Assembly (NCBI GenBank): GCA_900128395.1 | Contig: LT649255.1 | Coordinates: forward strand, 1-57,991 | DNA: 57,991 bases | Reading direction: 5' to 3' | Source: Stramenopiles sp. TOSAG23-2 | Lineage: Eukaryota | Shown here: piece by piece, positions 24,123 through 26,666 of the stretch | Numbering within the stretch: position 1 is the first letter of the stretch | How the letters are laid out: each line of letters starts with the position of its first letter | Notes under the pieces: model-generated | The model's database searches: none | The model's input: the letters and a program-made list of their open reading frames with translations, nothing else | What the model was told of the DNA's origin: nothing | Position numbers and translations under genes: made by a program

Positions 24123-26666
24123 TCACTTCTTCATTGCATTAAGCTTTACATTATTTTTTGCTTCCCATACATCCATTGGCGATATTACTGTTCCAGTAAA
24201 AAATTCCAAACCAACTAATTCATCATTTAAACTTTCATCAAAATTAAAATATTTAATTTTGAATTCCTCAGGTCTTGCTAATTCGTTATAAAAATTTGTA
24301 CATGCTTTGACTAATGTCGCAATTTGTGTAATAACATTTATTATTTGAATATCGCCATTTCCTAAATCAATAAAACTCGTAAATTCTTCTAAATGTGATT
24401 GTAATTTATCAACCATTCCTTCGAATTCATGATGTGTACTTTCAAATAAATTTAAAAAGCTTGCTTCTTTATTGATATAATACTTCATGGTATATACCCA
24501 TTGCAATACTTTTCTACATTCACGGACGCATTCGCATGCTTCAATCAAAGCAGTTGCCTGTTCCATCGCTCTATTATTTCTCAATGAAGTTGATGCCCAT
24601 TCCTTAAAGTTCTCGCTTAAAGCATCCGCATGCTCCGCGCTTTGTTCAGCAAATTTAAAACGTTGAACGTGGAATTCATATCGTTTCGTCAATTCTTTAT
24701 AATCATCTGAGTACTGCTCGGCAAAAGCAGCACGTTTTGCAGCCCCTGATAAAGTACCTCTCTTCTTAGCTTCTTGATACTTTGTACAAGCATAAAATCC
24801 ACCTGTACCTTCTCCATGTTCACTCCATGGACCTAGGCATAGCCAGCAAAATTCTCTACCACAACCACCTTCACTTCTTCTACATGTCATATGCATACAA
24901 CCGCCATCTTTGTTAATATTTCTTTTGCAGAAAGGGCATGGTTTAACATTTTGCGCCATCCATATATCATCTGTTGTACCACCTTTAAATTTCTTCTTTT
25001 CTATATTTAACCAATGATTTCGAGTTTCACAACTTACTGGAACATGTGGTGCCTCTTCACAACCGAAACACCACATGTGTCCACATCCAGGTTTGCATAC
25101 AATGCAACGATTTTCTGCTCTTAAACTTGGATACATAACAGCTTTTCCACAGCCCCTTGGGCAGTATTTTACTTTCTGTGTTTTTTGCACATAGGTTTCC
25201 AAAAATCCTTTTTTAAATAGATTTAAATGTTCTGGCGTTACACTTTCGACTATGTGTTCATTTATATAATTATTACATTTTGGCATTGGGCAAGGTGTAA
25301 ATATAAAACTGTATGAATTATTTTTTAATACTTTTGAGTTCAAATACTGTTTCCAACAAGTGTCACAAAAATAATGTCCACACGATAATGCTAATGTTGT
25401 TGTTGTAGATTGTAAGCGCATTAATTTAGTAGGAGACAAATCCATTTCATCTACTATTTCTTTTTTTTTACTAATATTATTATTATCTATCCCATTTGTT
25501 TTACTACTTTTACTTTGTTTCTTTGTTTTCGATGATGACAAAGAAAATGGCGAAATAAAACCTTTTTTTTTTGCTGTCTTCTTGATCACAGCACCTAATT
25601 TCTGCAATTTGTTCTTAAATTGTTTTATATCGTTATCGTATAATGTATTGCAATCTGGATTTAATGAATGTCCCCAATTTGGATCTATAAATAATGTTTG
25701 TAAGCCATTACAAATATCATTCATTGTGTTCATTGGTGACCAATCCTCGTTTAATATGGATAAACACACTGTACCATCATCAGGGTTAATATTTGGATGG
25801 AACATTCTGTTTTTTTTAAGGCAAATGACTGACTTTGGTGGATGAAATGGATAATTTGTTATAGGTTTTGGTAATGTAATTTGAAATGTACATGAAATTC
25901 CTGTCCACATGCCTTGACATTTGATATCAACATGGATAATCGACATATCCTCAACATTTGGTATCGATACATCTATATATTGACCACCATGTGTTTTTAC
26001 TTTTCGCAATTGTTGATGTATAGCTTTAATACCTGTTTTCATGCCACGTGATTTTTTTATTTTCTTTTTCTTTTTATATGTTTGCTTTATAGTATTATTT
26101 TGTTGTGTTGTTGCCAGTTGCTTTTTCAATAATTCTCGCGGACATGCTTTGCAGCCAAAACATATACTGCAATTTTTTTCGATTTTTTTACCATGTACTA
26201 ATGGACCATGCTTCGGCATACCGGCTTTTAGACATACTTTGTCCCGTGATTGTTGGATTTGAGAATCGTTCTCTCCTTCCCACCATAAATGACTCACTAA
26301 ATCTTCATTCCAGTCGTAACATATTAATATATGTGCAGCTGTTGAGTGAGTAACGCCACATTTGTCCATAATACTTTCTATAGTATTTTTAACAAAATTT
26401 GTAATTTTACTATTGTCAACAATATCGTAGGATTGCAATCTTTGCATAAATATTGTAGGCTTTAAATTATTTATATCATCATCTTTTCTTCCATAATCTT
26501 TACCATCAGTTTGCTCCTCATCATCACTGACATATTTATAAGGAGTATCGCTTTCATCACTATTGTATTCATACGAAGATGCATATGAATCTTCTTCATC
26601 TGAATATCCAAAAGCATCATCCGTATCTGAAGAATTGCTATTCTTTTTTTCTACTAATCTTGACAT
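24123..26666 (-). CDS. Ariadne-family RBR E3 ubiquitin ligase with a UBC (E2) domain inserted in RING1
   Basis: Acidic N-terminus, UBA-like segment ([14 protein letters not shown]), split RING1 (C166/C169 ... [10 protein letters not shown] ... CPMPKC), IBR, RING2 [16 protein letters not shown]..FCWLC and Ariadne domain ([18 protein letters not shown]). UBC core [23 protein letters not shown]. Confidence 0.9.
   Translation of the reverse strand: [847 protein letters not shown]

Follow-up and report, generated by a model that had tools for sequence, protein, structure and literature searches.

Can a RING-between-RING (RBR) E3 ligase carry its own E2 enzyme within the same polypeptide? The question is raised by one gene in contig LT649255.1 of Stramenopiles sp. 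TOSAG23-2 (GenBank assembly GCA_900128395.1), of which positions 1 to 57,991 of the forward strand, the whole stretch of DNA analysed here (57,991 nucleotides), are called the window. A first-pass annotation made from the letters alone had described the product of this gene, P0001, as an ARIH1-like RBR ligase with a ubiquitin-conjugating (UBC) domain nested in its first RING finger (RING1), and this description was borne out. P0001 is predicted to be an RBR E3 ligase of the Ariadne type whose RING1 holds an inserted E2, complete and apparently active. The insert lies in the first zinc loop of that finger, the loop beside the E2-binding surface. Known parts are here joined in an undescribed and mechanistically suggestive manner, and they are found so joined in a small conserved family. 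We favour, with moderate confidence, a relay within one chain, in which a modifier passes from E1 to Cys301 of the inserted E2, then to Cys590 of RING2 and then to the substrate.

An E2 domain within RING1

Pfam places UQ_con (residues 217-355, 79.8 bits against a cut-off of 27) between the two halves of RING1, with IBR and RING2 following. In a search of solved structures, residues 425-763 align with chains of ARIH1 (E 1.3e-38; residue 763 corresponds to ARIH1 residue 513), ARIH2 is matched with E 8e-27, and residues 211-356 align with E2 enzymes. The Pfam RING models give weak matches at 417-445 only, below the cut-off, and these fall on the second half of RING1. One part of the expected Pfam picture did not appear, as the Ariadne model (PF19422) has no match to P0001 at E <= 1. 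UBA_ARI1 does not match P0001 either, and it is on record for one of the eight family matches described below (P0009).

A cluster of CxxC motifs stands upstream of the UBC domain and C429-x-H-x2-C-x2-C-W downstream of it, so the domain lies between the second and the third zinc ligand of RING1. All eight C3HC4 ligand positions are present in these two pieces, the first six of them invariant in eight of eight aligned sequences, and the two pieces would fold into one RING1. The gap between the second and third ligands is 257-260 residues whichever first pair is chosen, which agrees with the about 260 residues first estimated for the insert. The zinc pair of P0001 would be either C169/C172 or C166/C169. 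The pair named in the first-pass annotation, C166-x-I-C169, does match the canonical Ariadne consensus "CxIC", whereas in the family alignments the other members have one CxxC only, and it falls on C169/C172. These two positions are invariant among eight aligned sequences, and in an alignment of 15 their conservation is 90% or more.

The other landmarks were located correctly from the start: the UBC range (residues 210-356, at 26039-25598), Cys301, Cys590, Cys429 (25380-25382) and Cys166 (starting at 26171), as well as an acidic N-terminus and basic linkers on both sides of the UBC domain. Lys and Arg make up 13 of the 35 residues at 176-210 on the N side and 15 of the 64 residues at 360-423 on the C side, where another 18 are Ser or Thr.

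A conserved family with the same order of parts

The architecture is not confined to P0001. A search with residues 150-640 gave eight proteins sharing its Pfam set (UQ_con and the IBR models) at 35-99% identity, and the remaining matches listed were ordinary Ariadnes that cover 42-67% of the query. When the UBC domain was compared by HMMER with 1.84 billion representatives, 13 matches scored 97-153 bits and the best ordinary E2 scored 82 bits; the divergent members P0158 and P0163 also carry the RBR part. A word-indexed search with the UBC domain alone scored 8 candidates and found 2 fragments, and with a 15-sequence family profile it gave 3 matches, namely P0002, P0003 and one fragment. The ESM Atlas, searched at the level of clusters of at least 50 members, returned plain Ariadne clusters only (scores up to 0.83).

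In maximum-likelihood trees of 68 and 108 rows, all 21 distinct fusion-type UBC domains form one clade, with a value of 99 in the Shimodaira-Hasegawa-like approximate likelihood ratio test (SH-aLRT). P0145 and P0006, near-copies of P0004 and P0135, were left out of the rows, and the free E2s (47 in the first tree, 87 in the second) were those with near-full coverage of the domain. The HPN motif and the E2 cysteine are present in 21 of the 21 members, HPN being invariant also in the alignments of eight and of 15 sequences. The upstream CxxC is found in all 14 relatives whose sequence reaches that far upstream, and C-x-H-x2-C-x2-C-W in all 14 members whose open reading frame (ORF) extends to it. 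Invariant in the eight-sequence alignment are C169, C172, H290-P291-N292, C301, W309, P311, C429, H431, C434, C437 and W438, and in RING2 likewise G589, C590, M591, H592, T594 and C595 (8 of 8). The residues on which the first-pass annotation had relied, HPN and the two catalytic cysteines, are thus conserved. As the same part order and the same catalytic residues are kept in relatives at 26-48% identity, from AT-rich as well as GC-rich genomes, the recurrence of the architecture is, judging by these comparisons, far beyond chance.

Such conservation bears on whether the inserted UBC is an enzyme at all. Its place in the E2-docking finger would also suit a regulatory or pseudo-substrate plug that occupies RING1 competitively and autoinhibits the ligase. 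Inactive E2 variants, however, typically lose the HPN motif and the active-site cysteine, and both are intact in every one of the 21 members. Heavy autoinhibition is known for ARIH enzymes (sections of PMC7904520), which would be in keeping with a plug, but given the intact active site we consider a non-catalytic insert very unlikely.

The linkers on both sides of the UBC domain are predicted to be disordered and vary among the relatives from about 35 to more than 200 residues, and such disordered, length-variable linkers would suit a tethered E2 that moves back and forth between E1 and RING1. In a second subgroup (P0147, P0149-P0151 and P0153-P0156) they are Ser/Thr-rich and reach 200 residues and more, so the Lys-rich patch is not universal and belongs to the first subgroup only. 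In the second subgroup, the ORFs of P0150, P0151 and P0153-P0156 stop right after "ET[VI]AM-V", 2-3 residues before the C-x-H of RING1, and P0147 continues through to CGHYFC. The probable cause is a phase-0 intron, specific to this lineage, where the insert ends on its C side.

Independent copies and transcripts

The order of parts shared by relatives at such low identity, and in genomes of opposite base composition, also speaks against an artefact, that is, a misassembly or chimeric gene model that joins two genes, one for an E2 and one for an Ariadne, or else an insert that is normally spliced out. An independent metagenome contig (L003, 4,017 nt) is collinear with positions 27268-24036 over 3.2 kb at 98% identity, contains the same 847-aa ORF and spans both insert junctions and both gene flanks. 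It was the one locus with the same gene among the 10 found in the metagenome contig search, the other nine being ordinary E2s at 29-39% identity. In the 90% cluster of the protein (79 members, 40 of them read), the 15 members listed include 9 full-length copies (847 aa), which lie on contigs 2.8-3.3 kb long.

Among assemblies of marine RNA libraries, at least part of the gene was also present in 22 of 23 listed runs (from 12 studies; 16 on record as RNA), and because contigs match across these assemblies the organism carrying the gene is not rare. Contigs from four marine RNA libraries were confirmed on the gene, and two of them bridge the N-side junction (25969-26172 and 26086-26828), so the check for RNA across the insert borders came out well on this side. 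No splice joints were seen among the RNA contigs of the four runs. Compared with the window, these contigs have ten variants, six of them synonymous and the other four in the disordered tail and linker, where they match allele P0002. What can be said for an artefact is that the C-side junction is uncovered by the RNA contigs listed. With the evidence above, this reading is already largely refuted, and its chance is next to negligible. The gene is real, expressed and intronless, and it belongs to a marine protist.

The inserted E2 and the Ubc12 lineage

Which E2 was inserted is relevant for what the protein may carry. The first-pass annotation had placed the UBC domain closest to Ubc12, the E2 of NEDD8. 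When a profile of 13 family UBC domains was compared with solved chains, human UBE2M took ranks 1-3 (92.1, 86.7 and 80.9 bits), followed by the best non-NEDD8 E2 (76.3), yeast Ubc12 (75.6), UBE2D (about 73) and UBE2F (70.6), and no UBE2L3 chain was among the 60 best matches. The nearest free-standing relatives among the 1.84 billion representatives are Ubc12 orthologues. The best of them, P0157, scores 189.6 bits against UBE2M, 100.8 against the uncharacterised Naegleria E2 5v0r, 93.3 against UBE2F and 92 against the best ubiquitin E2 chain, and is by these scores unambiguously a Ubc12 orthologue; a more basal match, P0190, is weakly Ubc12-like. At the level of sequence, then, it holds that the inserted UBC is nearest to Ubc12/UBE2M. 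Structure searches do not help here: every E2 family ties (Z about 18, root-mean-square deviation (rmsd) about 2 A, about 145 residues aligned), and therefore the fold does not tell the subfamily.

The phylogeny agrees in part. The Ubc12-type motif C-L-N-[ILV]-[LI] is present in 59 of the 87 full-domain free E2s among the best 150 matches, and in the tree rooted on a RAD6-like E2 (P0237) the fusion clade has as its sister a clade of 75 rows, to which all 59 of these belong. The join between the two has an SH-aLRT of 77, with an outgroup of 12 E2 rows that were all picked for likeness to the query. It seems that the E2 domain descended from, or is sister to, the Ubc12/UBE2M lineage.

In spite of this likeness, the inserted UBC does not appear to be a Ubc12 orthologue. 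In a Ubc12, the free N-terminus is extended, and this extension docks with the NEDD8 E1 and with DCN1. The UBC domain of P0001 starts at about residue 211 of 847 and is therefore without a free N-terminus, and it has His in place of an Asp of UBE2M; both features set it apart from a Ubc12. This His lies in the PNWxHSLN loop, and 19 of the 21 members have it; at its position stand Asp in the PNPEDPLN loop of UBE2M and Ser in the loop of RAD6-like E2. We take it to be at the position of UBE2D1 D117 and UBE2L3 H119, which we presume from the shared loop register in addition to the published description. According to that description (sections of PMC5095918), the lysine-orienting acidic residue, D117 of UBE2D1, has His119 as its counterpart in UBE2L3, a cysteine-only E2. 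The analogy suggests that the inserted E2 is suited to passing its cargo to a cysteine and not to a lysine.

These results bear on a coupled neddylation, in which the inserted domain would work as a NEDD8 E2 that modifies a cullin lysine together with RBX1 and in this way switches on the Ariadne part, the RBR using a separate free E2. The lead of UBE2M in the profile scores and the Ubc12 orthologues among the nearest free relatives point in this direction. So does the biology of ARIH1, for which neddylated cullin-RBX1 is an activator and whose UBA-like domain binds NEDD8 (PMC7904520, in part). However, the lysine-orienting acidic residue is His in nearly all members, an internal domain offers no free N-terminus for a docking extension of the Ubc12 type, and an insert in the RING1 loop adjoining the E2-binding surface would hinder a second E2; in addition, the join of the fusion clade with the Ubc12-like clade is weakly supported in the tree (SH-aLRT 77). 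We consider this explanation quite unlikely, and the earlier suggestion that the E2 domain itself neddylates cullins is disfavoured.

A proposed single-chain relay and what weighs on it

In the relay that we prefer, an E1 would charge Cys301 with the E2 domain swung clear of RING1, and the charged E2 may then dock in cis on the reconstituted RING1. The modifier would be transthiolated from there to Cys590 of RING2, a step supported by the UBE2L3-like His at the lysine-orienting position. RING2 would finally hand it to a substrate lysine with the help of His592, as RBR enzymology suggests, where a role of the His two residues after the catalytic Cys is described in parts of PMC11354881. That the UBA-like and Ariadne-like parts have been kept suggests, plausibly, an activity still gated as in ARIH1 and ARIH2, probably by a neddylated cullin-RING partner.

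Docking in cis can be compared with HHARI. According to sections of PMC5548887, Phe63, Pro97 and Ala98 of UbcH7 contact Ile188, Cys211, Glu214 and Tyr215 of RING1, Tyr190, located on the "Loop1" side, is in contact with E2 helix 1, and E2 recruitment and transfer to RING2 occur in cis. The counterpart of UbcH7 Phe63 in P0001 is Phe274, which is F, L or Y in all members but one, and that of Pro97 is Pro311, which does not vary in the alignment of eight sequences. On the RING1 side of the interface Trp438 is invariant, Tyr441 is mostly kept and most members have a hydrophobic residue within the CxxC. The insert enters RING1 exactly at Loop1, beside the start of helix 1 of a docked E2, and a tethered E2 could therefore dock canonically. 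We infer cis docking of the E2 on RING1 from this conservation of residues.

The predicted structure is in agreement with the Ariadne scaffold. A full-length AlphaFold2 model based on an alignment of 148 rows had a mean predicted local distance difference test score (pLDDT) of 79.4 and a predicted template modelling score (pTM) of 0.59. It is confident at 78-154, 161-190, 211-360 and from 411 onward, with low confidence at 1-77, 193-207 and 365-406. In VIA comparisons with the model, ARIH2 (7oni_H) gave Z 19.8 over 358 aligned residues at rmsd 5.2 (model 73-801), and ARIH1 (7b5l_H) gave Z 18.8 over 361 aligned residues at rmsd 4.3 (model 77-822). Such alignments start at model residues 73-80 and end at 801-825, these being ranges and not residue pairs. 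As they run over the insert, the Ariadne scaffold is predicted across it.

Several observations weigh against the relay, or at least against parts of it. The CxxC segment, confident in the full-length model (pLDDT 90-95), falls to 40-49 when residues 160-480 are modelled alone, and the helix at 177-190 to about 49-55, and because of this the reassembly of RING1 rests on conservation and not on models. No result of the model-based searches has the E2 docked on RING1 or Cys301 near Cys590, so the AlphaFold check gave no arrangement of E2 on RING, and in neither structure search (with two AlphaFold models) did E2-RING fusion chains rank above plain E2s. If C169/C172 are the zinc pair, P0001 and P0003 have Gly at the position of HHARI Ile188, an E2 contact. 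The His of the PNWxHSLN loop is absent from 2 of the 21 members. In the RNA contigs listed, the C-side junction (about 25380-25600) and several other parts of the gene are without cover, although these are low-depth metatranscriptome contigs and for that reason the hole proves nothing. Finally, we know of Ariadne RING2 domains acting only with ubiquitin, yet the nearest relatives of the E2 are NEDD8 enzymes.

The lack of a cis-docked model also leaves some room for an E2 that is tethered but works independently, discharging directly to substrates or other E3s or acting in trans from one protomer to another, with RING1 as an ordinary or scaffolding finger and Cys590 not fed by Cys301. The long flexible linkers would permit action in trans, and the hybrids UBE2O and BIRC6 work without a second catalytic cysteine (PMC12818219, in part). 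This is at odds with the Cys and His of the catalytic RING2 (Rcat) and all RBR zinc ligands, which stay invariant beside the E2 cysteine in relatives at 33-48% identity, and with the His at the lysine-orienting position, which speaks against direct modification of lysine. HHARI moreover recruits its E2 and transfers to RING2 in cis (PMC5548887, in the sections covered). An independent E2 therefore seems to us unlikely.

What the proposed relay would carry is a separate matter. Ubiquitin is more likely than NEDD8, the former with a probability of about one half and the latter of about one quarter. That the relay carries NEDD8 or another ubiquitin-like modifier, and not ubiquitin, is in our view doubtful. 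If NEDD8 were the cargo, P0001 would be the first RBR-type NEDD8 ligase, a single chain requiring only E1, and a new route of neddylation; the same chain might then write NEDD8 and, by means of its UBA-like and Ariadne-like domains, also be a reader of neddylated cullins.

Gene layout and neighbouring genes

The layout of the gene is given in Table 1.

Table 1. Parts of the E2-Ariadne gene in the window, with the basis of each assignment (pLDDT values from AlphaFold).
Feature	Residues	Position	Strand	Basis
Whole coding sequence (P0001), 847 aa		24123..26666	(-)	Single ORF, no intron, stop-free
N-terminus, acidic and disordered	1-77	26436..26666	(-)	21 Asp/Glu in 77; pLDDT 31-49
UBA-like helical region	78-154	26205..26435	(-)	Helices 85-147, pLDDT 91-96
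RING1 first half, CxxCxxCxxC	Cys166/169/172/175	26142..26171	(-)	Family-conserved pair C169/C172
Short helix following CxxC	177-190	26097..26138	(-)	pLDDT 81-95 in full-length model
N-side flexible linker with Lys-rich patch	191-210	26037..26096	(-)	pLDDT 36-44
UBC (E2) domain	211-360	25587..26036	(-)	Pfam UQ_con E 1.9e-22; pLDDT 89-97
HPN motif	His290-Pro291-Asn292	25791..25799	(-)	Invariant in family alignments
E2 active-site cysteine	Cys301	25764..25766	(-)	Invariant in family alignments
His of PNWxHSLN loop	His333	25668..25670	(-)	Aligned with Asp of UBE2M PNPEDPLN loop (profile against 1y8x_A)
C-side flexible linker, Lys/Ser-rich	361-423	25398..25586	(-)	pLDDT 27-54 over 361-410, about 89 from 411
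RING1 second half	424-470	25257..25397	(-)	Cys429, His431, Cys434, Cys437, Trp438, then last Cys pair
IBR domain	484-546	25029..25217	(-)	Pfam IBR 46.8 bits, cut-off 24.3
RING2/Rcat	573-615	24822..24950	(-)	Pfam IBR_1 48.4 bits, IBR_2 47 bits; catalytic Cys590 at 24897-24899, His592
C-terminal helical Ariadne-like domain	628-846	24129..24785	(-)	ARIH1 sequence alignment and structural alignments

The neighbours are cellular eukaryotic genes, some of them intron-split: a DUF3689 protein, a SepSecS fragment, a MINDY-3/4 deubiquitinase, a cytochrome P450 reductase-like protein and an IMPDH fragment. The window is protist nuclear genome and not viral, and a giant-virus or bacterial origin was rejected on these cellular neighbours, some with introns. 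The search of viral contigs matched only two, both of giant-virus size (L001 and L002 from IMG/VR, about 270 kb). Each has at 5001-5480 a generic RBR-like stretch, 28% identical to residues 431-610, and in neither was a UBC domain noted.

The ORF at 29968-30801 (+) matches positions 1-193 of the 389 in the SepSecS profile, and that at 48887-50251 (+) matches positions 106-345 of the IMPDH profile; as the profiles are covered in part only, both genes are probably split by introns. By its SepSecS ORF, the organism has selenocysteine machinery. A 675-aa ORF at 34427-36454 (-) combines a RanBP2-type zinc ribbon with a domain of MINDY-3/4 deubiquitinases (E 4.9e-67). It is about 8 kb away from the E2-RBR gene, and nothing connects the pair. 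The adjacent DUF3689 protein at 20231-23506 (-), 1,091 aa, has long Asn-, Ser- and Lys-rich runs typical of this AT-rich genome, and a very long ORF of 2,761 aa is located at 10053-18338 (-). Just 3' of the E2-RBR gene, many unrelated RNA contigs, loose-ended on both sides and of high summed depth (up to 353), match a short AT-rich stretch at 23976-24030. This stretch looks like a common low-complexity or repeated element and not like expression of the locus.

Comparison with known systems

RBR ligases and E2s are known as separate proteins, and here evolution has fused both, placed the E2 inside the docking finger and kept it there across a diverse protist family. P0001 could be a compact natural system to trap or image the transthiolation from E2 to RBR, and it is a case of a whole domain inserted into a zinc-finger loop. 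The surfaces of an E2 that bind E1 and E3 overlap, and the protein bears on how an E3-tethered E2 alternates between the two. No natural E2-RBR fusion was found in full-text literature searches or in the sections covered of PMC4327156, PMC11354881 and PMC2408969, as the first-pass annotation had also supposed for an Ariadne of this architecture; outside this search lie the survey of E2 folds by Burroughs et al. 2008 and the architecture tables in the supplement of PMC4327156, and the combination could be listed in either.

P0001 shares with ARIH1/HHARI and ARIH2/TRIAD1 the acidic tail, probably the UBA-like region, RING1, IBR, a RING2 with Cys-x-His and a helical Ariadne-like C-terminus. The difference is that ARIH1 and ARIH2 have a contiguous RING1 that recruits a free E2 (UBE2L3), whereas RING1 of P0001 is split by an insert with a whole E2, and that the Pfam models Ariadne and UBA_ARI1 do not match it. 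As an RBR ligase more generally, it has the IBR and a RING2 with Cys590 and His592, but the ligands of RING1 come in two pieces.

Among E2s, Ubc12/UBE2M is the best-scoring solved E2 for the family profile. In contrast to it, the domain of P0001 is internal, without the free N-terminal docking peptide, and the family has His where the PNPEDPLN loop has Asp. The fusion UBC domains form a clade of their own on a long branch, sister to the Ubc12-like clade and not inside it, though with weak support (SH-aLRT 77), and yeast Ubc12 does no better against the family profile than UBE2D (75.6 against about 73 bits). The inserted UBC shares the His at the lysine-orienting position with UBE2L3/UbcH7, the thiol-only E2 used by HECT and RBR ligases and the type of partner expected for an Ariadne RING1. 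UBE2L3 is not its closest relative in sequence, and the likeness is a functional analogy only.

The natural E2/E3 hybrids UBE2O and BIRC6, the only two that exist according to PMC12818219, resemble P0001 in having UBC and ligase function in one polypeptide. They are without a RING, HECT or RBR module and modify substrates from the E2 cysteine (same source, in part), whereas P0001 has a complete RBR with a catalytic cysteine of its own. Engineered E2-RING fusions (PDB 8v0d, UbcH5B-MIB1 RING3, and 4r8p, RING1B-UBE2D3) likewise have, by their entry titles, an E2 tethered to a docking RING. Those are artificial and joined end to end, whereas the fusion in P0001 is natural, conserved and made by insertion within the RING itself.

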